Made by a program: the position numbers and the translations under genes | Origin: a virus | Virus record (IMG/VR): IMGVR_UViG_3300045988_093233 | Location: 1-39,186 of that record | Length of the DNA: 39,186 nt | Strand: one strand, 5' to 3' | Part shown: piece by piece, positions 3,682-34,813 of the stretch | How positions within the stretch are numbered: position 1 is the stretch's first letter | Layout of the letters: every line of letters starts with the position of its first letter | The notes under the pieces: model-generated | Databases searched by the model: none | Told to the model about the DNA's origin: nothing | Seen by the model: the letters and a program-made list of their open reading frames with translations, nothing else

Positions 3682-4581
3682 TCACTTTTTCCCTGCGGTG
3701 ATTCTCACATGTCCCGCCTTGCCTTTCTTGGTTACTTCCTCGCAATACTTTTTGTAAAGTTTAGGGTGTTCTTCCTTGAATTGCTTTTCGTTGAATTTTT
3801 TCTCTGTGGTCTGCTCTCCGTCCGGAACAAGCGTTATCTTTGTTCCGCTTGGCGTCGTCCACGTTTTGATGTTGTGCTTTTCCATGCCTGCCTTGAGGCT
3901 TGCCTTTGCGTCCTTGTACTCTTTTTCAATCTGCTTGTAGATTTCGATCTGCGATTCTAAAATGAGGACCTTATCTGCAATCTCAACGATCTCTTTCGGT
4001 TGGAATTCTTCTTCGGTCGTGAATGGATTTTCCATCAGTCTCATCCAGTCTGCACGGAAGCGTTCAACCTCTTCTTTGATGTGTTCTATGTATGCGGAAT
4101 AGTCAGATTTTTTAATGTCGTAAACCGTAAGCCTATCTGAATTGAATTCTTCGTTGAAGTCTTCCGGTCTCTCATACACCGCCAAAATTCCGTTCTCATA
4201 GCCGTACATTTCAATTCCCATAAGCAGCTGGCAAAGGTAATAGTCGTAATCTTTGACATCCTCATGGATTGTGGAAGTGGTCTTTATTTCAAGAACCATT
4301 CCCTTGTCATAGTCCACGCCATCAGCGTGGTATCTAAGATAGCCGTTTATGATTTTCCCCTCGACGAATTTCGTTGAGCATTGGTCATTGATATAGGATC
4401 GGATTTGCGGTTCTAGCACATTACCGTATTCCGTATAGACGTTTCCGGCAAAAGACGATTCCTCAACTCCGGCTTTTTCTTTCAGAAGCTGCCAACGGGT
4501 CTTGAATTTAGAGATATTCAGAATCGCCGCGATGTCGCTGCCGCCGATGTATTTATCTCTATCCTTTGTTACGTCCTGCAT
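3682..4581 (-). CDS. YqaJ-like (lambda Exo-type) recombination exonuclease
   Basis: N-terminal GGSDIAAILNISKFKTRWQLLKEKAG motif, and the gene is paired with the ERF annealase immediately upstream. Confidence 0.75.
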   Translation of the reverse strand: MQDVTKDRDKYIGGSDIAAILNISKFKTRWQLLKEKAGVEESSFAGNVYTEYGNVLEPQIRSYINDQCSTKFVEGKIINGYLRYHADGVDYDKGMVLEIKTTSTIHEDVKDYDYYLCQLLMGIEMYGYENGILAVYERPEDFNEEFNSDRLTVYDIKKSDYSAYIEHIKEEVERFRADWMRLMENPFTTEEEFQPKEIVEIADKVLILESQIEIYKQIEKEYKDAKASLKAGMEKHNIKTWTTPSGTKITLVPDGEQTTEKKFNEKQFKEEHPKLYKKYCEEVTKKGKAGHVRITAGKK

Positions 4582-5156
4582 TATTTACCCTCCAAATCTT
4601 TCAGAACCTCCGCGAAACGTTCTTCTGTCGTTGAGCCGTTCAAGCCGTAATCTTTTGCAACTTCTGCAAATGATAAACCGCTTTCCTTTAAGTAGATAAT
4701 CAGCTTTTCGCGATAGGTCAGTTCGTTCGATTTTGGAGAAGATTTCTTCTTTTCAGACCCTCTTGTCTTTTCGGTAAATTCGTCCGTATCAGCGTCCTTT
4801 GTATCGTCAATGCAGAACAGCCCGTTTAAGGCATATTTTCTAGCGTAGGACGACGTTGCCCCGGTGATCTGCGAAGAATCCATTCCCTTTTTTGTCTCTT
4901 CTTCTCTAGCGTACGCTGTAACCGAAGCAGCTTCGGAACCGTCGGTTACTGTTGCCGTTGCTTTTACATAGTATCTATCTCCAATCATTACGATCTCATC
5001 AGAGATAGTCAGCTGCACACCCTCTTCGGCGCAAAGCGGCTTTACCGCTTCGAGAATGTCTTCGCAGCTTCTATATTTGTAATTGCCGAATTTATTAAAC
5101 TGACCTTTTGGGGCTTTCAGTTCCTTTTGAATTTTTATTAGTTTATTCATGTTCAT
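4581..5156 (-). CDS. erf: ERF-family single-strand annealing protein
   Basis: KFGNYKYRSCEDILEAVKPL...YAREEETKKGMDSSQITGATSSYARKYALNGLFCIDD matches the ERF signature. The start is ambiguous (TTG 5168, ATG 5156 or ATG 5150). Confidence 0.8.
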   Translation of the reverse strand: MNMNKLIKIQKELKAPKGQFNKFGNYKYRSCEDILEAVKPLCAEEGVQLTISDEIVMIGDRYYVKATATVTDGSEAASVTAYAREEETKKGMDSSQITGATSSYARKYALNGLFCIDDTKDADTDEFTEKTRGSEKKKSSPKSNELTYREKLIIYLKESGLSFAEVAKDYGLNGSTTEERFAEVLKDLEGK

Positions 5157-5173
5157 TCTCCTCGACAAAGTTT

Positions 5174-5392
5174 TTAATTATTATTTGAAGTAACTTTTCT
5201 GCGTTTACTTAGGAGCTGTTCGTCTGTATATTTTGTGTAATCGCAGATCGTTTGCAATATGGCATCAAAGTTTTCCTCCGTTACCTCTTCCTTAAGTTCG
5301 TATCTGAGCGCTTTAGTTATGAGTCCTAACTCGCCGAACAAATCGACTGCGTTTCCTCTAAGTTTAACGATTCCGTTTTTCGCTTTAATCAT
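5174..5392 (-). CDS. Hypothetical protein (72 aa)
   Basis: ORF in the operon, overlapping the upstream gene. Confidence 0.55.
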   Translation of the reverse strand: MIKAKNGIVKLRGNAVDLFGELGLITKALRYELKEEVTEENFDAILQTICDYTKYTDEQLLSKRRKVTSNNN

Positions 5393-5585
5393 CGTATGTA
5401 TCCATCCTTTCCTTGTTGCTGTCTAAGCAGTCTTGGCAAATTAACTTCTTTCCGAACCAGTATCCGTACTCACTCCGGATATGCTCGCCGCATTCAGAGC
5501 AGATTGGTCTGTTATCGTATGCGTGGGCTTTTTCGTATTCCCATCGCTCTGCATCAGAAGCGGGACTATCTGATCTCCATATCAT
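5385..5585 (-). CDS. Small zinc-ribbon protein (66 aa)
   Basis: CSECGEHI...CQDC pairs. Confidence 0.55.
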   Translation of the reverse strand: MIWRSDSPASDAERWEYEKAHAYDNRPICSECGEHIRSEYGYWFGKKLICQDCLDSNKERMDTYDD

Positions 5586-5926
5586 TTTCTGTCACCGTCC
5601 ATTTTCTGCAACATGTGGTTCATGTTACGAATTCTAGCAGTAATGCTGTCGCGCCATCTGCGGTACTGTTTTTCGTTCTCTGCGTAGAAATAGCCGCCCT
5701 TTTCATGTGCTATGATACGTTCGCCGTTGTGTCTAAGAACCTCAATCACAAGCCTTGCTGTCCTGTCGTCAACATCTAAGTGCCTTGCCAGTTTTTTACG
5801 CGTCACTGGATTCTGCTCGTTAGCAGACTTAATCAGTGTCATAGCTTGACTTTCTAGTGATTGTCTGTTATAGTTTTCTTGGTTATTTTGGAATTGCCCC
5901 TCGTGGGCGTTCCTTTTTTTATTCAT
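5582..5926 (-). CDS. Putative winged-helix DNA-binding protein
   Basis: TRKKLARHLDVDDRTARLVIEVLRHNGERII looks like an HTH/wing pattern. Confidence 0.45.
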   Translation of the reverse strand: MNKKRNAHEGQFQNNQENYNRQSLESQAMTLIKSANEQNPVTRKKLARHLDVDDRTARLVIEVLRHNGERIIAHEKGGYFYAENEKQYRRWRDSITARIRNMNHMLQKMDGDRK

Positions 5927-6455
5927 TTCTCACCTCTACTTCTAAGCGTTTGACACCATGTCTCACAGCATCTTCGTGGCTGTCAAAGTAAATGTCTATG
6001 ACGTTTCCCTTGACGGCTGAACCAGTATCTTGTGCTGTATAAACAGTGTCTCCGATTTTGACCTCTGTACCGAATGGGATAACGGAAGTATCAACAGCGA
6101 TTGTCTTGCCCGCTTCGGCTCTCTCTCCGCTTGCTGTATAGACAATCTCTTTTCCGTTTTCGTCTAACGGACGGTTCTTTGCCCATATCGAACAGCAACG
6201 GACACAGCTACAATATGCTGTGATTTTGAATTCTCCGAGTGTTTTCCACTCTTGTTTAGGTTCTTGTTTTAACTCACGTTTTAACTCGACTTGGTGAGTT
6301 ACATGTGACTTAGACTGTGCTTCCTCTAGGTCATCATGTCCGGCAAATCCCAGCATAGTTATGATTGCAGCTGTTACCAAGATACCGCCTAAAGGCTTTT
6401 TGATTTTGTATATGGCACCTAAGATGCCGCCGCCTGTTCTCCTATGCTTCTTCAT
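5919..6455 (-). CDS. Membrane-anchored 3D-domain (MltA/RlpA-like barrel) protein
   Basis: N-terminal TM segment (GGILVTAAIITMLGFAG). C-terminal ITAYCSC..C...TASGERAEAGKTIAVDTSVIPFGTEVKI...YTAQDTGSAVKGNVIDIYF is typical of 3D domains. Confidence 0.65.
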   Translation of the reverse strand: MKKHRRTGGGILGAIYKIKKPLGGILVTAAIITMLGFAGHDDLEEAQSKSHVTHQVELKRELKQEPKQEWKTLGEFKITAYCSCVRCCSIWAKNRPLDENGKEIVYTASGERAEAGKTIAVDTSVIPFGTEVKIGDTVYTAQDTGSAVKGNVIDIYFDSHEDAVRHGVKRLEVEVRNE

Positions 6456-6681
6456 GTTCCTGCCCCTTGACTAAGCAGAAGAATTTTACTCCGTTATAGA
6501 CCGTAAATTCTTCTATGGGATATTCGCTATCATCCCTGTCTATTGTTTCGTATTCCGGAAACATTTTTTCAAAATATTTTCGACTAAGATGCACATAGTC
6601 CTCGTTAATTCCACATAAGCCGTTGCATTCATCGTACAGCTTTGCATAATCTTTCGCATACGCAGCTAATTTATCTTTCAT
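6442..6681 (-). CDS. Hypothetical protein (79 aa)
   Basis: ORF in the operon. Confidence 0.55.
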   Translation of the reverse strand: MKDKLAAYAKDYAKLYDECNGLCGINEDYVHLSRKYFEKMFPEYETIDRDDSEYPIEEFTVYNGVKFFCLVKGQEHEEA

Positions 6682-6698
6682 TCTTTACCTCCTTTTTT

Positions 6699-6896
6699 TC
6701 ATACTGTCGCCCTTGATTTCAGAACCGATGCAACGTCCGGTATGAAATACCGCTTTCCGACTTGCTCGAGATCATTCAGATACTTGTCTACGCAGTGTGG
6801 GTCTTTGTACCCCATGACCTCTGCCAACTCCTGCCGAGTGATAAACAAGGTCTTTGTAGACATCTTCATTTGTCTTATCAGTTCTTGTCTGTCCAT
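6699..6896 (-). CDS. Small HTH protein (excisionase/MerR-like)
   Basis: LFITRQELAEVMGYKDPHCVDKYL...RYFIPDV. It sits directly after the Cro-like gene with an ATGA-type overlap. Confidence 0.45.
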   Translation of the reverse strand: MDRQELIRQMKMSTKTLFITRQELAEVMGYKDPHCVDKYLNDLEQVGKRYFIPDVASVLKSRATV

Positions 6897-7093
6897 TATT
6901 TCCTCTCTTTCAACAGCGTGTTGACTGTTACGCCTAAAACGTCAGCGACCTTTTGCAGGGTTGAAATAGTTGGTTCGCTTTTTGATTCCCATTTTCCAAT
7001 ATGACCTCTTGCAAGACCAGATTGACGTTCCAACTCTGAAATCGAAATGCCGCGCTTTTTGGCGTAATACCTAATGTTTTCGTAAATCATCAT
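6896..7093 (-). CDS. cro: Cro-like XRE-family HTH regulator
   Basis: YAKKRGISISELERQSGLARGHIGKWESKSEPTISTLQKVADVLGVTVNTLL. The gene is divergent from the CI-like gene. Confidence 0.75.
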   Translation of the reverse strand: MMIYENIRYYAKKRGISISELERQSGLARGHIGKWESKSEPTISTLQKVADVLGVTVNTLLKERK

Positions 7094-7164
7094 TTCTCCT
7101 TTCGTAATTTTTTGCTATAATGCTTTTGAGGTGATAACATGAAACATTGTTTCCATAATTTCGC

Positions 7165-7314
7165 TTATTGTAAGCGTAGCGCTATAATCAGCGCTGTTAC
7201 TGATACCGCAAGGCTTGACAGCGAAAGCGTATATCTGATTATCGCTCTTCGCCGTTCAAATGCTTTTTGAGCAGCTTCTTGTTCTTCTTGGGCTGTTTTC
7301 AACATGCTTTTCAT
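7165..7314 (-). CDS. Small tail-anchored membrane protein (49 aa)
   Basis: ATG 7314 is preceded by aaGGAGAAcaataacacc. The C-terminal segment SLSSLAVSVTALIIALRL is hydrophobic. Uncertain, because an antisense 47-aa ORF with its own promoter overlaps it. Confidence 0.4.
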   Translation of the reverse strand: MKSMLKTAQEEQEAAQKAFERRRAIIRYTLSLSSLAVSVTALIIALRLQ

Positions 7315-7334
7315 GGTGTTATTGTTCTCCTTTC

Positions 7335-7517
7335 TTATCGGTAGACTAATCGCAATAGTGCAACTATTCCTATGAAAATCCACATTGCCGCCGTTATCGG
7401 CTTCATGATCTGCAAGATTTTTTTCTGAATGGATTTCTTTTTAGCTTTCCGCTCTTTATATGAAAGCCATTCTTCTCTTGTCATTCCTAAAATTTTGAAA
7501 AACTCCGTTTCGTCCAT
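7335..7517 (-). CDS. First early ORF, small protein with C-terminal TM segment (60 aa)
   Basis: First ORF downstream of the leftward switch promoter. Contains the hydrophobic stretch ITAAMWIFIGIVALL. Confidence 0.5.
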   Translation of the reverse strand: MDETEFFKILGMTREEWLSYKERKAKKKSIQKKILQIMKPITAAMWIFIGIVALLRLVYR

Positions 7518-7539
7518 TTCTCACCTCTGCATTATTTTG

Positions 7540-7553
7540 CGTAAAACTTTACG
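7540..7553. promoter_or_regulatory. Operator-like palindrome CGTAAA-ac-TTTACG
   Basis: Perfect inverted repeat. The CGTAA/TTACG half-site recurs several times between 7540 and 7715. Confidence 0.5.
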
Positions 7554-7561
7554 AAAAGCCA

Positions 7562-7590
7562 TTGACAATTTTCGTAATTTATTCTATTAT
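7562..7590 (+). promoter_or_regulatory. Rightward promoter for the CI-like gene
   Basis: TTGACA (7562-7567), 17-nt spacer, TATTAT (7585-7590). Confidence 0.6.
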
Positions 7591-7660
7591 TCAAGTAACC
7601 ACACTAAATAATTTTTTACGAAGCATTTTTGTTTTCCGTATTTTTTTACGCTACGTCTTT

Positions 7661-7689
7661 ACTTTACCATAGAATTATACGGAAGTCAA
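7661..7689 (-). promoter_or_regulatory. Leftward early promoter
   Basis: On the minus strand: TTGACT (7689-7684), 17-nt spacer, TAAAGT (7666-7661). Confidence 0.45.
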
Positions 7690-7696
7690 TACTTTT

Positions 7697-7714
7697 TGCG
7701 TAAAAAAATACGCA
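7697..7714. promoter_or_regulatory. Operator-like palindrome TGCGTA-N6-TACGCA
   Basis: Perfect 6-bp arms just upstream of the CI RBS. Confidence 0.5.
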
Positions 7715-7730
7715 TTTTTTGGAGGAAGTA

Positions 7731-8081
7731 ATGGACACATATGAACGATTGAAAGATTTATGCAAACAAAAAGGGGTTACGGTTGGTCAAATGGAATCCG
7801 ATAACGAAATTACAAGAGGCAATGCGAACAAATGGCGGAACTCGATGCCAAATCCTAAAATGTTAATGAGATTATCAGAATACTTCGGTGTATCTACTGA
7901 TTATATTCTTACCGGTGTAGATAGCGGTGCATCTAAATATAGCTATTATGACGATGAGACGGAACAGATCGCAAGAGAACTTCAGAAGAACAAAGAACTA
8001 CGGGCAATCTTTGACGTGGCAAAGGGAATGTCTAAAGAGCGCTTGGACGCTTTTTATAACTTATTAAAAGACTTGAAATGA
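7731..8081 (+). CDS. CI-like XRE-family repressor
   Basis: GGAGG RBS 5 nt before ATG 7731. HTH region is LCKQKGVTVGQMESDNEITRGNANKWRNS...LSEYFGVSTDYILTG. Confidence 0.8.
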   Translation: MDTYERLKDLCKQKGVTVGQMESDNEITRGNANKWRNSMPNPKMLMRLSEYFGVSTDYILTGVDSGASKYSYYDDETEQIARELQKNKELRAIFDVAKGMSKERLDAFYNLLKDLK

Positions 8082-8102
8082 GGTGATGTATTGGAGGAAA
8101 AT

Positions 8103-8321
8103 GTGAAAATCGTATTTAGACCATTCGACTGCGATTTTCGCGGTGCCGTCCTTTGCAGGTATGAGGATGGCGAAAATTATTACACTATTGTAATAAACGA
8201 GAATCTATCGGAAGATGCTCAAATACGTACAATCAGACACGAGATCGCACACATTGCTCATAACGACTTCGACAGCGACATGCCAATCGGAGAGATTGAA
8301 GCTATTAGACATTTAATTTAG
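8103..8321 (+). CDS. Short ImmA/IrrE-like metallopeptidase-motif protein
   Basis: HEIAH (HExxH) motif in IRTIRHEIAHIAHNDF. The gene sits immediately after the repressor, as in ImmR/ImmA pairs. GTG 8103 follows GGAGG. It is much shorter than a full ImmA. Confidence 0.5.
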   Translation: MKIVFRPFDCDFRGAVLCRYEDGENYYTIVINENLSEDAQIRTIRHEIAHIAHNDFDSDMPIGEIEAIRHLI

Positions 8322-8337
8322 TATGGAGGTGTGAATA

Positions 8338-9174
8338 ATGAAAAAGGCTTTATCATTTATTTTATCTGTTTTCATAACGATATCAATGACAACTCCAGCT
8401 TATGGATATGGGCTGGAAAAACCAAACATAACATACATAGAATCGGACGGAAACTGCGTTTACATTGAATGGACTAATATTTATGGCGCCGAAATATACA
8501 ACGTATATCGTTCTGAAACTAACAAGTATGACTATGAATTTATAGACACAGCAACTAGCAATTCCTATTTTGATTCAAACGTAGAATATGGAAAAAGGTA
8601 TTATTACCAAGTCCAAGGGGTGAGCACCACAAGTTTTAGTGATCCAAGTGATTCTAAATCTGCAAAAATTGTATGGACTGATAAGCATTTCCCTGTTAAT
8701 GATTTGGGCAGACCGGAACTTACTACATTTACGGACGAAGATCAAGACTGTATATGGCTTCTTTGGGACGAGATCGAAGGAGCAAATGTATATTACATAT
8801 ATAGGTCAACCTCAAAAAACGGACCATACGAGTTAAAATATTTTGAAGATGAAAGCGTACTAACGTTTGATAAAAACATTAAAAAGAATAAACGATACTA
8901 TTACAAGGTTCAAGCCTTATATTTTGATGAAGAGAATGGGACTGTGCTAGGCGGAAAGCCTAGTTTGTGGAGATCTGATATAATCACAAGCAAAAGAATT
9001 GTAAAAAAATCAACCAAAACTGTATCAAAGCCCGTTAGTCAAACAGTGTACGTCACAAGAACAGGTTCAAAATATCACCGATATGGTTGCCAGTATTTAA
9101 GACAAAGCTGCTATTCTATGAGCAAATCTGATGCAAAAGCGCAAGGATATACAGCTTGTTCAAGGTGTTGGTGA
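8338..9174 (+). CDS. Secreted/lipoprotein-like protein with two FN3-like repeats and a C-terminal Cys-rich metal-binding tail
   Basis: Signal peptide MKKALSFILSVFITISMTTPAYG. Internal duplication (YNVYRSETNK...KRYYYQVQG and YYIYRSTSKN...KRYYYKVQA). C-terminus is GSKYHRYGCQYL...GYTACSRCW. Confidence 0.65.
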   Translation: MKKALSFILSVFITISMTTPAYGYGLEKPNITYIESDGNCVYIEWTNIYGAEIYNVYRSETNKYDYEFIDTATSNSYFDSNVEYGKRYYYQVQGVSTTSFSDPSDSKSAKIVWTDKHFPVNDLGRPELTTFTDEDQDCIWLLWDEIEGANVYYIYRSTSKNGPYELKYFEDESVLTFDKNIKKNKRYYYKVQALYFDEENGTVLGGKPSLWRSDIITSKRIVKKSTKTVSKPVSQTVYVTRTGSKYHRYGCQYLRQSCYSMSKSDAKAQGYTACSRCW

Positions 9175-9175
9175 T

Positions 9176-10213
9176 ATGGAATACATAAGAAAAACATTTA
9201 CCTTTGAGGGTAAACGGTACACTGTCAGAGGAAAAACTGAAAAAGAAGCCATTATGAAGATGGCGAATAAACTGCGGGATTTGGAGGAAGGCAGCGTTGT
9301 CATATCGGGGAATACTTCGGTAAAAGATTGGGCATTGAAGTGCGTGGAAACATACAAGACCAACCAAGCTGATGCTACAAGAAAAACCTATTTGGAAAAA
9401 ATGAATTCTGTCATTTTTACGAAAATTGGAAGCAGGACACTAAAATCAATAAAACCTTTTGACGTGCAAAATGTGATGAATTCTTTGCAAGGTTACTCGA
9501 AAGCCTACATATCCGATATTTATCAAATGCTTAGGTTTATTTTTTCAAAAGCAAAAACAAACAAACTGATTGCTGACGATCCAACGCTAGATTTACAGAA
9601 ACCAAAAGGAACAAAAAAGAACCGTCGTGCGCTCACAGAAAGTGAAGAATACCATTTTCTAAAAGTGTGTGAGGAAAGTGACAGGTTTTTGGTGTTCATG
9701 TTAATGTATTATTGCAGCTGTAGAACGTCAGAAGCAATCAACATTATGGGAAAAGATATTGTGGCAATTACAGAAAACGGAGAGAAGTACAACGTATTGC
9801 ATATAAGGGGAACAAAAAGCGGAAATGCTGACAGAAAGGTCCCTCTTCCGGATGTTTTATACAATCGAATAAAAAACACGCCTAAATTCAATTACGTTGC
9901 AACTGACACCAAAGGTAACAAGTATACAAAATCAAGCCTTAAATGTGCGCTAAATGCTCTACGCCGCGAAATGAACATCTCAATGGGGTGTAAGGTTTTT
10001 CGGAATGAACTTATTCAACCGCACCCTTTGGCGGATGATTTTGTTCCATACTGCTTGCGTCACACCTATTGTTCAAACCTATGCAAAAAAGGAGTGGATA
10101 TAAGAGTTGCGCAATACTTAATGGGACATTCGGACATTAGGCTGACAGCAAACATATATACACATACGGACAACTCTGCTATTGTGGATGCAGCAAAAAA
10201 AATGAGTGTGTGA
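9176..10213 (+). CDS. int: Tyrosine integrase
   Basis: N-terminal arm-binding-like FEGKRYTVRGKTEKEA. C-terminal catalytic pattern is ...CLRHTYCSNLCKKGVDIRVAQYLMGHSDIRLTANIYTH. ATG 9176 was chosen because the 9131 start overlaps the upstream gene. Confidence 0.9.
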   Translation: MEYIRKTFTFEGKRYTVRGKTEKEAIMKMANKLRDLEEGSVVISGNTSVKDWALKCVETYKTNQADATRKTYLEKMNSVIFTKIGSRTLKSIKPFDVQNVMNSLQGYSKAYISDIYQMLRFIFSKAKTNKLIADDPTLDLQKPKGTKKNRRALTESEEYHFLKVCEESDRFLVFMLMYYCSCRTSEAINIMGKDIVAITENGEKYNVLHIRGTKSGNADRKVPLPDVLYNRIKNTPKFNYVATDTKGNKYTKSSLKCALNALRREMNISMGCKVFRNELIQPHPLADDFVPYCLRHTYCSNLCKKGVDIRVAQYLMGHSDIRLTANIYTHTDNSAIVDAAKKMSV

Positions 10214-29287: not shown

Positions 29288-29539
29288 TTATAACTCCTTT
29301 TGCCCTTTGGAAGAACCGTCGTAATTATTTACATTTTCATACAGTGTGCTGTAATATTTCCTCTTTTTTTCTGCTTCTTTGTTCTCTTTTGCCTTTTTAA
29401 TCTTCTGTTTTGGCGTTTCCAGCTTGATTTCCGGCTTGTTTGTCTCTCTTGCACCGATGTTATAGCCCTTTATAAAGCAAAAGACGCTCAAAATCGGCGT
29501 CAGTACGGCTAAAATTAGAATTGTAATGTCAGATAACAT
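29288..29539 (-). CDS. Small membrane protein between TerL and portal (83 aa)
   Basis: N-terminal TM (ITILILAVLTPILSVFCFI) and a Lys-rich tail. It abuts the portal start and overlaps the TerL end. Confidence 0.45.
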   Translation of the reverse strand: MLSDITILILAVLTPILSVFCFIKGYNIGARETNKPEIKLETPKQKIKKAKENKEAEKKRKYYSTLYENVNNYDGSSKGQKEL

Positions 29540-30986
29540 GAATTTTGTCTCCTTTGTCGAATCTTTTCCCTTTTTTACGCTTTAGTCCAGGGAAATTTCG
29601 CTCTAAAAACGATTCTTCTTTAATTTTTATCACTTTTGCGTCAGAGTAAATGAATTTATTTAGAATCTGCGACATGCAGTCTACTTGGTCGTCGTTCTTT
29701 CCGTTCGGAAACGCCGCGCATTCATCGACAAAGTCTCCGGTAAATGGTTTATTCTTCGGCAAAAAGCAGTTTCCGCTCTCAATCGTACCAATTACGGCAT
29801 TGACACGAGAAACTTTTCCGCCGTCCGGATTGACTGCGATTATCCCGCCCATATGCGTCCTCAAATGCTTCACAATCGCAGAACCATTTGCCTTGTCCTC
29901 GATGTAGGTTGTCTTGCACATAGGATACATGCCCCTCAACCTTGTAATCTCTCGTATCGTGGACGGCATATCAAGGTGTTTTTTCACTGCGTCAATCAAG
30001 TAAAGGTCAGCATTTGTCTTTCCCCACACTTGAATTGCCACAAAGTCGTTGTCGTCTCCGTCTTTGAACGCCGCATCAACGCTCATCGCCATTTTTTCAA
30101 TATGGGGTAAGGTCTCGTAATACTGCCACCACTCACGCTTGATTATGTTGCCCTCAAGCCCTGTTGGATGCCCTTGGAATAATGCGTTCCATGACCTTGA
30201 ACCACCTAAACTGGTATATGACTTCTTGAAGTCGGCAAGCCAAACATTGTCCTTTCCAATCTCCGGACACAAAGCATCTCCGACTTTTCTGCCTAAAATA
30301 TCATCCGGTTCTGCTTCTAAGGGGATATTGACTACTTTGACGTTTTTCTCTGTCTCAATCAGTCTTCCGGCAAGGTCATCCTCATGCCAGCGCGTCATAA
30401 TCAAAATGATTTTCGCACCGGCAGCTAGTCTTGTCTTATAGGATGAAAGCCATTCATCAAATACTCGATTACGATAACTTTCGGAATCCGCCTCTTGCTG
30501 TGTCTTTACTGGGTCATCGATAATCATGAGGTCGCATCGCCGACCAGTTACACCGGACAAAAGTCCTCTGCTTACCATGCCGCCTCTATGACCTTCAAGT
30601 TCAAACTCTGTCGCATTGGCAGGTGAACCGATTTTCACTCCGAAAACCTCACCGCCGAATTCTTTTATCTTCTGCAAATTGCGTCTGCCGAATTTCTGTG
30701 CAAAATCTTCAGAGTAGGAAATCTCAATCACCGACTTCTCGGGGTTTCTACCAAGATACCAGCTTGGCAGCGTCTCCGTCACTGTTACGGACTTCCCATG
30801 CTGCGGGGGTGTAGACAAAATTAAGATGTCATACGCATGCCCGGTGTCCTCTTCCAAAAAATCTTGCACCGTATCGCACAAAAAACGGTGGAATTTGCTC
30901 ACTTTATAGCCGTTATTGGTGTGTTTTACATACGCGCAGTAATCCGTCCTTAAAACGTCTCTATAGAGCCTTAAAACATCATTCAT
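29529..30986 (-). CDS. terL: Terminase large subunit
   Basis: Walker A-like LSTPPQHGKS, Walker B CDLMIIDDP, MTRWHEDDLAGRL, and a C-terminal nuclease-like ...NDDQVDC. Confidence 0.9.
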   Translation of the reverse strand: MNDVLRLYRDVLRTDYCAYVKHTNNGYKVSKFHRFLCDTVQDFLEEDTGHAYDILILSTPPQHGKSVTVTETLPSWYLGRNPEKSVIEISYSEDFAQKFGRRNLQKIKEFGGEVFGVKIGSPANATEFELEGHRGGMVSRGLLSGVTGRRCDLMIIDDPVKTQQEADSESYRNRVFDEWLSSYKTRLAAGAKIILIMTRWHEDDLAGRLIETEKNVKVVNIPLEAEPDDILGRKVGDALCPEIGKDNVWLADFKKSYTSLGGSRSWNALFQGHPTGLEGNIIKREWWQYYETLPHIEKMAMSVDAAFKDGDDNDFVAIQVWGKTNADLYLIDAVKKHLDMPSTIREITRLRGMYPMCKTTYIEDKANGSAIVKHLRTHMGGIIAVNPDGGKVSRVNAVIGTIESGNCFLPKNKPFTGDFVDECAAFPNGKNDDQVDCMSQILNKFIYSDAKVIKIKEESFLERNFPGLKRKKGKRFDKGDKIHVI

Positions 30987-31689
30987 TTTTCGCCTCTAAT
31001 AGTCTTGGTCTTGAATATCCGAGTTCCTCAAGGTTCTTCTTCGCCTCATCAACACTGGATGTGTCCTCAACCTTTACCACCCTGTCTTCTCGCTTATCCG
31101 CCCAATCGCATAAATTCTTTAAGGTGAATATCGCACTGGATGTGTTATAGGCGCCAACTAGAGCCCCGTCACTTAACAGATCTCCTAGCATAGATTTATA
31201 TTCGCTCTCCTGCGATGGGCTCATATTCGCTAGGTGGTCCCGCATGGACCTCCTAGAAATGCCCAGCCACATCGCTAGGTTTGTAACGTTCGGCACAATC
31301 GGCATTACGCCTGTTTCTCCGTCCGGTCTCTTAAACTCTTTCACGAAATTGTGCTTTCGGATATATGCACAAAATCCCTCGAACGCAGTCAATATCTCGT
31401 CGCAGCTTTCAAATATCTTTTTTTGAAGCGGTTCTAAATTATCCCTCATAGAGTAAATATAGCCCCACATCGCTTTCGCTTCTTTCGTGAGGTCTTTATC
31501 CTCTAGGTTTAATGGGTTCGGTCTAGCTTGATCATACTGCTTATAAAGCTGGTCTGCTCTACGAATCGCTTTCTTCGCATACGCTGCCTTGTTCTTCTCT
31601 TTGATCTGCGGTCTTACATGCGGAACAAACGGTTGAACAACCAGTTCATCGTTCCTTGGTCTGCCCCTCTTTCTCTTTTCATCAGCCAT
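30979..31689 (-). CDS. terS: Terminase small subunit
   Basis: Basic N-terminus KRKRGRPR. HTH-like NVTNLAMWLGISRRSMRDHL and C-terminal AIFTLKNLCDWADK pattern. Immediately upstream of TerL with an 8-nt overlap. ATG 31689 has a GAGGTG RBS. Confidence 0.75.
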   Translation of the reverse strand: MADEKRKRGRPRNDELVVQPFVPHVRPQIKEKNKAAYAKKAIRRADQLYKQYDQARPNPLNLEDKDLTKEAKAMWGYIYSMRDNLEPLQKKIFESCDEILTAFEGFCAYIRKHNFVKEFKRPDGETGVMPIVPNVTNLAMWLGISRRSMRDHLANMSPSQESEYKSMLGDLLSDGALVGAYNTSSAIFTLKNLCDWADKREDRVVKVEDTSSVDEAKKNLEELGYSRPRLLEAKNE

Positions 31690-32214
31690 TTTGCACCTCT
31701 TTTCAGTCATTTTGTATATTTATGCACAATTTTCGGATACTTGCCCGAGGAATCGTGATACTTTTATTCGTTTTCGTGTATAATTCTATTATTTTTTCGG
31801 TACTTACACTGCTTTTGACTAGTGGGGTCGCTACGATGTTGGTGTGAGGTGTAAGTACTCTGTATAGGGGACACGCTCGCGCGAGTGGGGTCATTTACGA
31901 TTCACCCCCATCGGGCACCCTGCCGCACCCCCTGCCCTACTATATGTAGTGGTCGAGGGGCAAAACAAGCGGCGGGAAAGAATAAGGGTATTTCTTCCAC
32001 CTCCTACGATTATTGAATTTTCAACGATTGCTGGCATAATGTAAAATGTTGTAACTATTCCGATAACTATGATTTAGGGAATAGTTGAGAAGAAATGAAG
32101 ATGTGCCAGTGATACATGGAAAGCGTGTGCCAGTCGGCTTTTTGGGCGGGAAGCATCTATACGAGCCCGGTCCATCCCCGTATTCAACCGAAATTGCGCT
32201 ACATTTATACGCAC

Positions 32215-32243: not shown

Positions 32244-32641
32244 GTGTAAATATAGTTTTGGTTTACTGTTTAGGGGTGTTCCTGTATAGTTTCCCCCGAT
32301 TCCGGCGCCGTCATATGCATCTGGCCGGCGTTCCTATATATGCCCTATGTCGCGTCTATATTGGTCGGGAATGCAGGATTCGAACCTGCTAAGCTATAAG
32401 CGTCAGATTTACAGTCTGATGTGCATCTCCCGCTGCACCGATTCCCGATATCTACGCGCGGCTGCGTGGATCCGGTAACGCGTCCTGCGCTCCGGGGTTG
32501 TTTGTTGCGGCCGTCATTCCCCCGATCGGTGACGCTGCGCTGTTCTATGTCATCCGCCCGCCTAGGGGGCGGCAATAACCGTTGCCCCCATTGCGGGGGC
32601 GTTGAAAGGAGGTCAAAAAACAATGAAAAACCTGTTTTCCC
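32244..32641 (-). ncRNA. GC-rich structured transcript (~190-nt leader, tRNA-Tyr, ~115-nt trailer)
   Basis: Bounded by an extended -10 promoter and a terminator. No credible ORF or RBS. Many G5/C5 runs form overlapping hairpins. Composition contrasts strongly with the rest of the genome. Confidence 0.45.
32362..32447 (-). tRNA. tRNA-Tyr: tRNA-Tyr (anticodon GTA), type II with long variable arm, encoded CCA
   Basis: Hand fold: acceptor CGGGAAT/ATTCCCG; D-stem GTGC/GCAC; anticodon arm TCAGA-CTGTAAA-TCTGA; 13-nt variable arm; T-arm GCAGG-TTCGAAT-CCTGC; A73; CCA. Total 86 nt. Confidence 0.85.
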
Positions 32642-32656: not shown

Positions 32657-32750
32657 CATTTCCATAGATTTTTCGTCCGCGGAAAGTCCGCATTTTTCAA
32701 CGGTTTGCGGGTTTTGCCGAAAAAAGTTTGAAAAAAATTAAAAAAAGGTG

Positions 32751-32780
32751 TTGACATCATACCCGACGGTATGCTATGAT
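32751..32780 (+). promoter_or_regulatory. Near-consensus promoter of the plus-strand cassette
   Basis: TTGACA (32751-32756), 18-nt spacer, TATGAT (32775-32780). An A-rich UP-like tract lies upstream. Confidence 0.7.
32758..32774. promoter_or_regulatory. Operator-like inverted repeat CATACC-cgac-GGTATG(C) inside the promoter spacer
   Basis: Perfect 6-bp arms. The same 17-mer recurs at 33307-33323. Confidence 0.6.
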
Positions 32781-32833
32781 GTGGATACAACGAAAGAGCG
32801 GAACGGCAAAAGCCGATCGAAAGGAGAAAGAAA

Positions 32834-33103
32834 ATGAAGAAATACGTTTTTGAGGAGTACAGGGACAAAGCAGGTGTCGGAAGTGAAAAGATTTTCGACA
32901 CAAAAAAAGAAGCTGTTATGTTCGCAGAAAGCGAATGGAAATTCTTAACGGAAAATGACAAAGCGTCATACTTAAACGACGCAAACGGAACTTTTCGCGT
33001 CTACGAATTAGAATTCTCGCAGGAGCAGGCAGAGGATGAAGATTTGATGCTTAGCGAATTGTGGTATGCTGATGTGTGGGACGCATTGAGTGAGGGCAGA
33101 TAA
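32834..33103 (+). CDS. Small acidic protein (89 aa), first gene of the cassette
   Basis: AAGGAGA RBS. Rich in D/E (QEQAEDEDLMLSELWYADVWDALSE). Its stop overlaps the next start (TAATG). Confidence 0.65.
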   Translation: MKKYVFEEYRDKAGVGSEKIFDTKKEAVMFAESEWKFLTENDKASYLNDANGTFRVYELEFSQEQAEDEDLMLSELWYADVWDALSEGR

Positions 33104-33285
33104 TGGGAAAGACATCTAGTGAAGCCAAAGCCCGTTGGAAAAAAGCCAACTACGCAGAATACCATGTGAACTTGCGAAAAGATACCGACAGCGACCTAAT
33201 CGCGTTGGTGGAACGGCGAAAGCACAACGGCGAAAGCACAACGGAGGTTTTCCGGGACGCACTTAGAAAATTAAAAGAGGGTTGA
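33103..33285 (+). CDS. Ribbon-helix-helix (CopG/Arc-like) DNA-binding protein
   Basis: ANYAEYHVNLRKDTDSDLIALVERRKHNGESTTEVFRDALRKL fits a beta-strand / helix / helix RHH layout. Confidence 0.6.
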   Translation: MGKTSSEAKARWKKANYAEYHVNLRKDTDSDLIALVERRKHNGESTTEVFRDALRKLKEG

Positions 33286-33305
33286 CCAAAACCCTCAAAA
33301 ACATA

Positions 33306-33323
33306 GCATACCCGACGGTATGC
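33306..33323. promoter_or_regulatory. Second copy of the palindrome GCATACC-cgac-GGTATGC
   Basis: Identical core to the promoter operator. It follows a GAGGGTT/AACCCTC hairpin at the end of the RHH gene. Confidence 0.5.
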
Positions 33324-33423
33324 TGACCAAATTAAAAGCCCATGTAAAGAGAATTGGGTTAAGTTTTGTGAGGCAAAACGAACTTGTATGTTGTTAGGGG
33401 TTAGAATTTAGGAGGTTCAAAAC

Positions 33424-33441
33424 ATGAGAAGAATTAAATAA
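33424..33441 (+). CDS. Possible 5-codon leader ORF (MRRIK)
   Basis: AGGAGG lies 8 nt upstream of the ATG. Two GC-rich hairpins (33444-33459, 33466-33482) follow before the next gene. Confidence 0.3.
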   Translation: MRRIK

Positions 33442-33513
33442 ACGGCGGCACTAGCCGCCCCGTCTGCCGGTACAAGTCCGGCACTGATGAGCAAGAGCGA
33501 AACGGAGGGAAAA

Positions 33514-33717
33514 ATGAAAATTAGAAGTTTGTACATAACTGCTAGTAGAGCAGTTGCAGCACTTGCAAAAAAGTGGGAAGTGAATCCTGTATGGGTATGG
33601 GATTTGTTTGAATATGAATTCGGTGTTATAAAAGGCTTAGGCAATCTGGTTTCACAAGATGAGATCAACAGGGTTGAAAGCATCATTTGTGAAGAAATCA
33701 TTCATGACAGATCATGA
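33514..33717 (+). CDS. Hypothetical protein (67 aa)
   Basis: GGAGGG RBS before ATG 33514. The in-frame ATG 33487 has no RBS. Confidence 0.55.
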   Translation: MKIRSLYITASRAVAALAKKWEVNPVWVWDLFEYEFGVIKGLGNLVSQDEINRVESIICEEIIHDRS

Positions 33718-33732
33718 GAACGGAGGTACAAA

Positions 33733-33945
33733 ATGAGAAAGGTATTAAGCGCGATTACGGTAATTCTGATGGTTTTTACAATCGCATTAGCTAGCCATGT
33801 ATGGACGATGCACCATCTGAGCATCGAAACCGACGGCGACGGTGACAGCGCATTTATCACCTGTGCCGGTCTGACATGGTTCTATGGTATCAACGGCTAT
33901 GCCATAGATGCAGGCGGAAAAATGGTTGATTTTATCTGTGATTGA
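33733..33945 (+). CDS. Small membrane/secreted protein (70 aa)
   Basis: N-terminal hydrophobic segment VLSAITVILMVFTIALA. GGAGG RBS. Confidence 0.6.
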   Translation: MRKVLSAITVILMVFTIALASHVWTMHHLSIETDGDGDSAFITCAGLTWFYGINGYAIDAGGKMVDFICD

Positions 33946-33977
33946 TGATAGAATTACGAAAACAGGAGGACGAAAAG

Positions 33978-34397
33978 ATGAAAATTATGCAAGAAAACGG
34001 AAAGATCGTTATGGACATTACAATCTCGCAACCTCAGAAGAACGGTGATGTATACAAATACATCACAAAGAAACGTTTGGGTGGAAGTGTTACCGAGGAC
34101 GAATTTCTCGGTCTCAATGCCCCGGATATTCTGGTCGAAATATCCATGCCAGAGCTTCAAGGTTCCGAAAAACAAATTGCATGGGCCGAAGACATCAGGA
34201 TGAATATGATTTACAATTTTATGCACGAAAAAATTGAGATGAATGGTTGGGTATCCATGTTAGATCAAGGAAAAGCAATGGGAATCAATACGTATCAGGA
34301 GTTGTTCGAAGCACTGATGAAAGCGAATTTTCCGAAGTTGCTGCAAGAGACAAAAGCAAAAGAGATCATAGAGAATAGATACGCAATAAGGTTTTAG
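33978..34397 (+). CDS. Hypothetical protein (139 aa) with a GSEKQIAWAEDIR motif
   Basis: AGGAGG lies 8 nt before ATG 33978. I could not assign a family. Confidence 0.6.
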   Translation: MKIMQENGKIVMDITISQPQKNGDVYKYITKKRLGGSVTEDEFLGLNAPDILVEISMPELQGSEKQIAWAEDIRMNMIYNFMHEKIEMNGWVSMLDQGKAMGINTYQELFEALMKANFPKLLQETKAKEIIENRYAIRF

Positions 34398-34405
34398 GTG
34401 GGAAA

Positions 34406-34621
34406 ATGAAAAAATATCATGTTGAATACGCAACACCGGAAATGGTAAAAGATCACGGTGGATTACACGATTTGAGTTGGGGAGATATTAGTGATGCGAT
34501 CGACGCTGAAAGCGAAGATGAGGCTATTGAATTAGCGAAGCAGTCACTAATTGATGATGGATATGAAGAGAATATCGAAGATGTTTATTTTCGAGCAAAA
34601 ACTATTGACAAAATTTATTGA
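34406..34621 (+). CDS. Small acidic protein (71 aa)
   Basis: D/E-rich (DAIDAESEDEAIELAKQSLIDDGYEENIEDV). Last ORF of the cassette. Confidence 0.6.
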   Translation: MKKYHVEYATPEMVKDHGGLHDLSWGDISDAIDAESEDEAIELAKQSLIDDGYEENIEDVYFRAKTIDKIY

Positions 34622-34638: not shown

Positions 34639-34669
34639 TGTCATACCATGCAGCGTTGTGAGTAGAAAC
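34639..34669 (+). repeat. Module 1 (N12 = TACCATGCAGCG)
   Basis: Exact TGTCA and TTGTGAGTAGAAAC flanks. Confidence 0.9.
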
Positions 34670-34696
34670 ATGTTCAATATTTTATGTATTGCAAGA

Positions 34697-34727
34697 TGTC
34701 ATGTCGAAAGGCATTGTGAGTAGAAAC
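34697..34727 (+). repeat. Module 2 (N12 = TGTCGAAAGGCA, self-complementary with GAAA loop)
   Basis: Exact TGTCA and TTGTGAGTAGAAAC flanks. Confidence 0.9.
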
Positions 34728-34758
34728 TTGTTATGATTTTATTGAAATCATAAATGAC

Positions 34759-34789
34759 TGTCACGCTGTATGGTATTGTGAGTAGAAAC
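34759..34789 (+). repeat. Module 3 (N12 = CGCTGTATGGTA, reverse complement of module 1's N12 with one G-U)
   Basis: Exact TGTCA and TTGTGAGTAGAAAC flanks. Confidence 0.9.
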
Positions 34790-34813
34790 ATTTCTTGATA
34801 AAGTATCTACAAA

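Follow-up and report, generated by a model that had tools for sequence, protein, structure and literature searches.

The closest known system to the locus described here is formed by the operons under control of Aca14, a ribbon-helix-helix (RHH) protein of 66 amino acids (aa) that represses its own and a downstream anti-defence operon via two inverted repeats, as demonstrated by electrophoretic mobility shift assays (EMSA) and reporters (Feussner et al., NAR 2026, PMC13551039). In the virus record IMGVR_UViG_3300045988_093233 of IMG/VR, whose positions 1 to 39,186 constitute the stretch of DNA analysed here (hereafter the window), we find a cassette whose design closely parallels that of these operons. 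It consists of a promoter (P1) with a palindromic operator (O1) in its spacer, a gene for an acidic 89-aa protein, a gene for a 60-aa RHH regulator, a second operator copy (O2) and a set of further small genes. We consider it probable, with moderate confidence, that the cassette is a self-limiting set of accessory genes in a temperate phage of gut Clostridia, with the build of an acr-aca (anti-CRISPR/anti-defence) operon, as the initial annotation of the window had proposed; the proposal is supported at the level of architecture and of family association. The same evidence, drawn from sequence comparison, supports the view that the 60-aa proteins would form a new, unannotated family of Aca-type regulators of the RHH type with a searchable operator, Aca-like by their architecture and by the company that the family keeps.

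As in the Aca14 operons, a small RHH protein (66 aa there, 60 aa here) with an N-terminal extension beyond the RHH core is encoded within an operon of small genes of the anti-defence type, its own promoter contains an inverted repeat, a near-identical second one is found at the next downstream gene set, and the family is tied to known acr genes. In contrast, Aca14 is hosted by Proteobacteria (Pasteurella), while the phages considered here are those of Clostridia. The Aca14 repeat is AT-rich and overlaps the -10 box, whereas the arms here contain G+C and the motif, CATAC-N6-8-GTATG, lies between the -35 and the -10 boxes and abuts the latter. The downstream repeat of Aca14 is part of a demonstrated promoter, whereas the one here follows a hairpin and precedes a ribosome-binding site (RBS), with no clear promoter; and binding and repression were shown for Aca14 by EMSA and reporters, whereas those by the regulator described here are predicted from sequence. 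The Aca proteins of the helix-turn-helix (HTH) type, Aca1 and Aca2, share with the locus a strong early promoter, an inverted-repeat operator and a conserved regulator to which small acr genes of variable kind are coupled; their control likewise extends to a neighbouring operon, and the second site in a 5' untranslated region (5'UTR) recalls the dual RNA/DNA control exerted by Aca2. They differ in fold, which is RHH here, in the place of the regulator, whose gene may here come first, second or last in the operon, and in that RNA binding has been shown for Aca1 and Aca2.

The core of the cassette comprises the following features, where L numbers denote related loci:

32679..32698, plus strand: terminator-like hairpin with a T-run (GCGGAAAGTCCGC ATTTTTC), upstream of P1 and kept in L010-L012
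32720..32749, plus strand: A-rich tract upstream of the -35 box, similar to an UP element; the same tract precedes the promoter in most loci of the family
32751..32780, plus strand: promoter P1, TTGACA-18-TATGAT with a TGn extended -10, an 11/12 match whose boxes are kept in relatives
32757..32774, no strand: operator O1, tCATACC-cgac-GGTATGc, which occupies the P1 spacer; a family-wide motif
32834..33103, plus strand: gene for the 89-aa acidic cargo protein (isoelectric point (pI) 4.32, net charge -11), a candidate anti-defence gene by position
33103..33285, plus strand: gene for the 60-aa RHH regulator, Aca-like and RHH by transitive homology, whose ATG overlaps the upstream TAA (TAATG)
33277..33296, no strand: hairpin GAGGGTT-N6-AACCCTC, which spans the RHH stop and is followed by an A-run (plus strand) or T-run (minus strand)
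33305..33324, no strand: operator O2, aGCATACC-cgac-GGTATGCt, with 8-bp arms, the second copy, behind the hairpin

The initial annotation had singled out P1 as one of the best promoters in the window and its spacer as filled by a perfect inverted repeat, and both descriptions stand: the -35 box (TTGACA, 32751-32756) and the -10 box (TATGAT, 32775-32780) are 18 nt apart, P1 is one of five 11/12 matches, and CATACC-cgac-GGTATG occupies positions 32758-32773. As promoter-like matches are not above chance in the window as a class, the P1 call rests on conservation in relatives. The upstream hairpin at 32679..32698 probably insulates the cassette. The strongly acidic first gene and the overlap of its stop with the start of the second at 33103 are likewise present as described, and the palindrome does recur, as GCATACCCGACGGTATGC at 33306-33323, 20 nt past the RHH stop and behind a hairpin that has a counterpart in nearly all loci of the family. 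The claim that the two copies are identical, however, holds for only 17 of 18 positions, as the promoter copy begins with TCATACC where O2 reads GCATACC...GGTATGC; the stretch common to both is 18 nt long (CATACCCGACGGTATGCT). With up to three mismatches, the 16-mer of O1 and O2 occurs exactly twice in the 39 kb, against 0.12 occurrences expected and none of 100 shuffles reaching two, and a looser search of the genome for CATAC-N6-GTATG returned no site beyond O1 and O2.

The relatives to which the window was compared comprise four IMG/VR phages with terS/terL genes 84-99% and RHH genes 95-98% identical to its own, to which remoter IMG/VR loci were added. Over 37 distinct related loci, we searched for the operator motif (A/G)CATAC-N6-8-GTATG(C/T), allowing no more than one mismatch in the arms. 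It precedes the RHH gene in 25 loci and follows the RHH stop within 60 nt in 19, and 15 loci have it on both sides. Only 16 more sites turned up in 203 kb elsewhere, many of them paired in the promoter and 5'UTR of longer cargo operons whose last gene is the RHH gene. Throughout the family, the upstream copy is set within cTTG[ACATAC...GTATGC]TAtnnT, from the -35 to the -10 box, and the downstream copies are separated from the RHH stop by 16-35 nt and from the next RBS by about 10 nt. The arm spacing is 6, 7 or 8 nt, and equal at both sites in 15/15 loci, while the inner bases vary freely and are found inverted (CGAC to GTCG) between L017 and L018. Conserved arms around free inner bases, co-varying spacing and a promoter copy that lies upstream of the transcription start, and must thus act as DNA, together argue for one sequence-specific DNA-binding protein that reads two half-sites, as Arc does. 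The regulatory architecture assumed in the initial annotation, with the palindromes as probable sites of the regulator, is borne out by the family.

A variant of this arrangement is seen in L024 (1650-1800), L025 (2100-2260), L034 (120-460) and L039 (1930-2100), where the RHH gene closes a long cargo operon and the operator is doubled at the start of the operon, with one copy in the promoter spacer and one in the 5'UTR, 65-80 nt downstream, about 10 nt before the first RBS and usually behind a small hairpin and an A-rich stretch.

The assignment of the 60-aa protein to the RHH (Arc/MetJ/CopG) superfamily is made by transitive homology, and we accept it at the level of sequence because the family profile links by hhalign, over its full length, to the family member in L058 (98.1% probability, E 1.2e-13, 57 columns), which passes the Pfam Arc model (PF03869; 27.0 bits vs. 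a cutoff of 20.4); the RHH identity given in the initial annotation is thereby sustained. Searches with its profile collect 99 clusters of proteins of 57-93 aa, all unannotated, which define a family of about 100 clusters at 90% identity that lacks a Pfam model. The members in L054 and L055 come within 2 bits of the threshold of the ParG model (19.4-20.8 vs. 21.4 bits), and distant IMG/VR members resemble textbook RHH proteins (e.g., ...TVVRLPKGMKERLKAACEKDGISMNSIF...). The hallmark of the family is a conserved N-terminal arm, TSxEVKxRWxxxxY; a β-strand is predicted at Y20-R25, and helices at about 29-41 and 46-59.

Between P1 and the RHH gene lies a slot whose content differs even in phages that are about 95% identical, while terS, terL and the RHH gene stay 84-99% identical. 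It is occupied by 1) the 89-aa family in the window, L016-18 and L023, 2) the 77-146-aa MKKYAIVTM family, which is unrelated or barely related to the former, in L009 and L013-14 (the 146-aa slot protein of L009 matches the 89-aa protein at E 0.004, which is suggestive only), and 3) a 63-aa gene in L019 or a 106-aa gene in L020-21; in L010-L012 it is empty and the promoter abuts the RHH gene. A cargo-type slot upstream of the regulator, with content that is variable or missing in near-identical phages, agrees with what the initial annotation had read into the single genome. The AlphaFold2 model of the 89-aa protein is of good quality (predicted local distance difference test (pLDDT) 88, predicted template modelling score 0.77), with the order strand-strand-helix-helix-strand-strand, and is thus a confidently modelled, predicted fold that matches nothing solved. 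An exhaustive search with hidden Markov models found about 130 clusters of homologs, some duplicated or extended, in 1.84 billion representatives; large proteins in the weak tail of the profile matches, which carry lectin and cadherin repeats, were set aside as probably spurious, and a kinship with the 71-aa acidic protein of the same island was rejected (E 0.036). By position only, the 89-aa protein is a candidate inhibitor of host defence.

A homolog of the 89-aa protein (55% identity) is also found in L008 (668-5186), in a run of small acidic genes. Beside it are a gene with an NT5C match and weak ArdcN and Peptidase_M78 matches and a Toprim_2/DUF3991 gene, and a probable HTH gene of 65 aa lies two genes downstream; the contig resembles the leading region of a conjugative element.

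The genes downstream of the regulator are as mosaic as the upstream slot. Around about 45 loci, we scanned 80 cargo families, followed by two chimeric concatenates against PDB sequences; the median length of the cargo is 75 aa and half of it has a pI below 5.5. It is here that the association with anti-defence functions is found. In L037, which has an RHH homolog (tblastn, 48% identity, E 4e-11), the first gene after the RHH gene and O2 encodes a homolog of AcrIC5, which matches PF22147 over the full length of the profile (74.7 bits vs. a cutoff of 27, E 6e-21) and PDB 7yhr at E 6e-9. In L048, the first gene in the same place encodes ArdC (PDB 6sna, E 1.5e-48; phrog_7245, anti-restriction). 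Via L037, the family thus includes a regulator that lies directly beside an acr homolog, which is one of the operational marks of an Aca protein; the neighbours of the RHH gene in the window itself show no acr homology in Pfam, PHROGs or NCBIfam.

Two further cargo families travel together behind the RHH gene and operator, as the first or second gene, in L010-L012, L016, L027, L031, L037, L049-51 and L055-57. Neither is found in the window. The first comprises proteins of 164-168 aa with a degenerate J-domain (HSD for HPD; Pfam DnaJ, E 3e-4; phrog_15863) and a C-terminal domain with the pattern CGRWLWISGD...KWS..K.MWSWH, and the second proteins of 145-155 aa.

These observations suggest the following mechanism. 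The strong, σA-type P1 would drive a single transcript through the 89-aa gene, the RHH gene and four more small genes, up to position 34621. Acting probably as a dimer of dimers, the RHH protein would read the half-sites CATAC and GTATG, the centres of which are 11 bp apart at 6-nt spacing. When bound to O1, which fills the -35/-10 spacer, it would exclude RNA polymerase, so that the operon would fire in a burst on entry or induction and then fall to a low steady state. When bound to O2, it would most likely keep transcription, whether read-through or started at a weak internal promoter, from entering the downstream cargo, and the genes there would thereby be shut off no less tightly than that of the regulator. 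The cargo slots are exchange points for small, often acidic genes, some of which are, in related phages, bona fide anti-defence genes (the AcrIC5 and ArdC homologs).

Several results weigh against this interpretation. No match to the 89-aa protein was found in Pfam, PHROGs or NCBIfam, and Foldseek searches with its model gave nothing significant in the PDB (best E 0.27, TM 0.37) and, as best hits in BFVD, uncharacterised proteins at E 0.008 or worse. The 60-aa protein reaches the Pfam RHH_1 model only below threshold (E 0.042, 14.3 bits vs. a cutoff of 20.5), and 4 of 49 family members match that model, all weakly. A PDB sequence search with the RHH profiles returned only noise (omega repressor, E 1.1). 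The AlphaFold2 monomer is poor (pLDDT 65) and has no β-strand; its helices 26-41 and 46-59 fit helices A and B, and the expected strand 20-25 is a loop. The fold search with this model returned nothing informative; of the structural checks proposed in the initial annotation, the one on the 89-aa protein yielded a confident model without a fold match and the one on the 60-aa protein was uninformative. No convincing conserved promoter was found around O2 in the window and its relatives, and the window gene directly behind O2 has been deleted, with its 3' end left at 33331-33411. Finally, a known anti-defence function was recognised in only 2 of the 80 cargo families; the other cargo identified is a cytidine deaminase in one island and a gene with an AntA antirepressor domain in a prophage island, no function could be assigned to the remaining families, and because of these two genes in related islands the cargo is not exclusively anti-defence.

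The reading that shares most of this evidence is a switch like that of P22 immI (Arc/Mnt-Ant), with the same regulation and a payload for lysis/lysogeny or superinfection control in place of defence inhibition. In P22 immI, the operator of Arc fills the -35/-10 spacer of Pant, and O1, with its two half-sites, is placed likewise in a strong promoter; Arc-type autorepressors of 53-60 aa with an N-terminal arm are encoded in the operon that they repress; one family member (L058) passes Pfam Arc; the RHH gene opens the operon in L010-12, L037 and L055-57, as arc does; the phage is temperate, with an integrase and an HTH repressor; and the related prophage island with the AntA gene holds several other small RHH genes. 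However, direct comparison of the family profile with P22 Arc and Mnt (hhalign) is not significant, family scans found neither an ant nor another Ant/KilA-type gene in the island of the window, which also lacks a divergent mnt and has an extra operator after the regulator, and the hypervariable cargo, partly missing in sibling phages, is too variable for a core lifecycle switch. In two relatives, moreover, the first downstream slot is filled by anti-CRISPR or anti-restriction homologs, and we thus regard an immI-like payload as unlikely. Less credible by far is a type II toxin-antitoxin system, in which the RHH protein would be the antitoxin and autoregulator and its neighbour the toxin. RHH antitoxins do autoregulate via promoter palindromes and are translationally coupled to their partners, and the two genes here are small and overlap by TAATG, but phages about 95% identical either lack the partner (L010-12) or carry unrelated genes in its place, the 89-aa protein matches no toxin family, is strongly acidic and is encoded upstream of the RHH gene, and a second operator lies between the latter and the downstream genes. 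Because the partner gene is not conserved in close relatives, we reject this option, which the initial annotation had already ranked as the lesser one, and leave it only a very slight chance.

A different question is whether the palindromes, or at least O2, act chiefly as RNA hairpins, in processing, stability, translation or, as with Aca2, protein-RNA binding. O2 is transcribed, and the RNA of 33262-33345 is predicted to form two tandem hairpins (-23.6 kcal/mol, z -6.0); O2-type sites lie about 10 nt before the next RBS, and the conserved order of hairpin, A-rich stretch, operator site, about 10 nt and RBS is found both after the RHH gene and in cargo-operon 5'UTRs; five loci have perfect O2-type palindromes where the promoter copy is palindromic in its arms only; and Aca2 and Aca1 bind RNA motifs in their own 5'UTRs (PMC13551039). 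O1, on the other hand, lies where it cannot act as RNA, the conserved feature is the arm sequence CATAC/GTATG and not mere pairing, the inner positions often failing to pair, and an AU-rich stem of 6 bp is weak. As the presence of one sequence at an untranscribed and a transcribed site is most simply explained by a single DNA-binding protein, we deem a chiefly RNA-based role improbable. For O2, a roadblock to read-through is our preferred reading, with RNA-level control as a live alternative. A candidate promoter P2 at O2 (TTGACC-16-TAGCAT) was rejected: it is a weak 9/12 match, not conserved in relatives and partly forced by the stop codon.

The L140 prophage island (3794-9294), next to terL, combines an RHH family member with several small RHH-type genes on both strands and the AntA gene; among these small genes are RepB-RCR_reg in L140 and, in the sibling contig L141, a NikA-like/DUF6290 gene. 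It is a hint that some relatives have a regulatory network of the immI type.

Downstream of O2, the plus-strand island of the window continues with the following features:

33331..33411, plus strand: 3' remnant of a gene that is complete in L009 (50 aa), to which the sequence is identical from 'attaaaagccc' onward; the deletion took the start and the RBS
33444..33459, no strand: GC hairpin GGCGGC-acta-GCCGCC, directly 5' of a ribozyme-like motif
33457..33508, plus strand: candidate type III hammerhead ribozyme (RF00008, 29.6 bits) with complete core nucleotides
33514..33717, plus strand: 67-aa cargo gene, also in L012
33733..33945, plus strand: 70-aa cargo gene with an N-terminal hydrophobic helix, also in L010-L012
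33978..34397, plus strand: 139-aa cargo gene (151 aa from an upstream TTG at 33942); phrog_16123, unknown function
34406..34621, plus strand: 71-aa acidic cargo gene (pI 4.3), the last gene of the island

The remnant is followed by an RBS and a 5-codon mini-ORF (open reading frame) at 33424-33441. The hammerhead candidate (GUC / UGCCGG-loop-CCGGCA CUGAUGA GC-AAGA-GC GAAAC) has three stems, with a stem II of 2 bp only, and its RF00008 score lies below the gathering score of 48.5 (local E 7.7e-5). The 3' strand of its stem III overlaps the GGAGG RBS of the next gene. It is also found at cargo-gene junctions in L009-12, L016-19, L055 and L057, and two base pairs of stem I show compensatory changes across 10 sequences; a search with a covariance model of the element recovered copies in close relatives only. 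It is conceivable, if doubtful, that O2 and this element add two further layers of control, which together would amount to a modular junction of the plug-in type, at which anti-defence genes are exchanged. O2 would then act on the elongating polymerase or the mRNA, as a repressor-dependent roadblock or terminator or as a translational operator, rather than as a promoter operator, and the hammerhead would cut the polycistronic transcript at cargo junctions and free the Shine-Dalgarno sequence held in stem III, which would uncouple expression and stability of the cargo from those of the regulator.

Beyond the island, three 41-nt direct repeats are found at 34639-34799, with units on the minus strand (GTTTCTACTCACAA-N12-(G/A)TGACA) and a period of 58-62 nt, and are conserved in L010, L011 and L020. 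Each contains a promoter-like site on the minus strand that points towards the island (GTGACA/TCGACA-17-TAAAAT in the first two), and the sites in the first two would, judging from their sequence, transcribe antisense into it. The hairpins at 33277-33296, 33305-33324, 33444-33459 and 32963-32982 are terminator-shaped, with a T-run, on the minus strand only, which fits antisense transcription from the repeats at 34.7 kb or some other role of the conserved module of hairpin and A-tract. The idea that the repeats mimic CRISPR repeats was dropped, as a metagenome scan gave single matches and no arrays.

The window as a whole is the 39-kb genome of a temperate, siphovirus-like phage, with a tyrosine integrase gene (9131-10213), an HTH repressor, an ERF/YqaJ recombination pair and terS/terL on the minus strand (29529-31710). 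The plus-strand island (32751-34621, 1.9 kb), headed by the P1 cassette, is flanked by the packaging genes on one side and by a converging minus-strand module on the other. Neither the island DNA nor the 89-aa and 60-aa proteins have a match in GenBank phages or PLSDB plasmids, and a scan of GTDB genomes with the alignment of close RHH relatives found no relatives. The nearest terL genes in GTDB genomes are those of a Clostridia metagenome-assembled genome (70% identity) and Ihubacter sp. (68%), followed by Mogibacterium (58%) and Brotomerdimonas (51%), and because the best of them are 68-70% identical we infer the host to class or family level only (Clostridia). In the Ihubacter prophage, an RHH homolog lies in the same place and is followed by the operator motif; the Brotomerdimonas prophage has a more distant RHH gene there, without the motif. 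In the 1.1-kb non-coding stretch between terS and P1 lies a Tyr-like tRNA gene (32365-32447, minus strand; Rfam 48.4 bits, GTA anticodon, long variable arm), which ARAGORN missed and which is present in L009, L011 and L012 and was not detected in L010.

To our knowledge, phages of gut and oral Clostridia have so far yielded few anti-CRISPR or anti-defence genes, and the usual handle for finding them, HTH Aca genes, misses loci such as this one. The RHH family and its operator, (A/G)CATAC-N6-8-GTATG(C/T), offer a two-part signature for finding such cassettes, which around 45 loci has already picked out about 80 families of small proteins, most of them uncharacterised and many acidic. The family would be the second, independent case, after Aca14, of RHH regulators of anti-defence genes and would extend the idea to phages of Bacillota, with the cassette as a new place to seek phage counter-defence genes.

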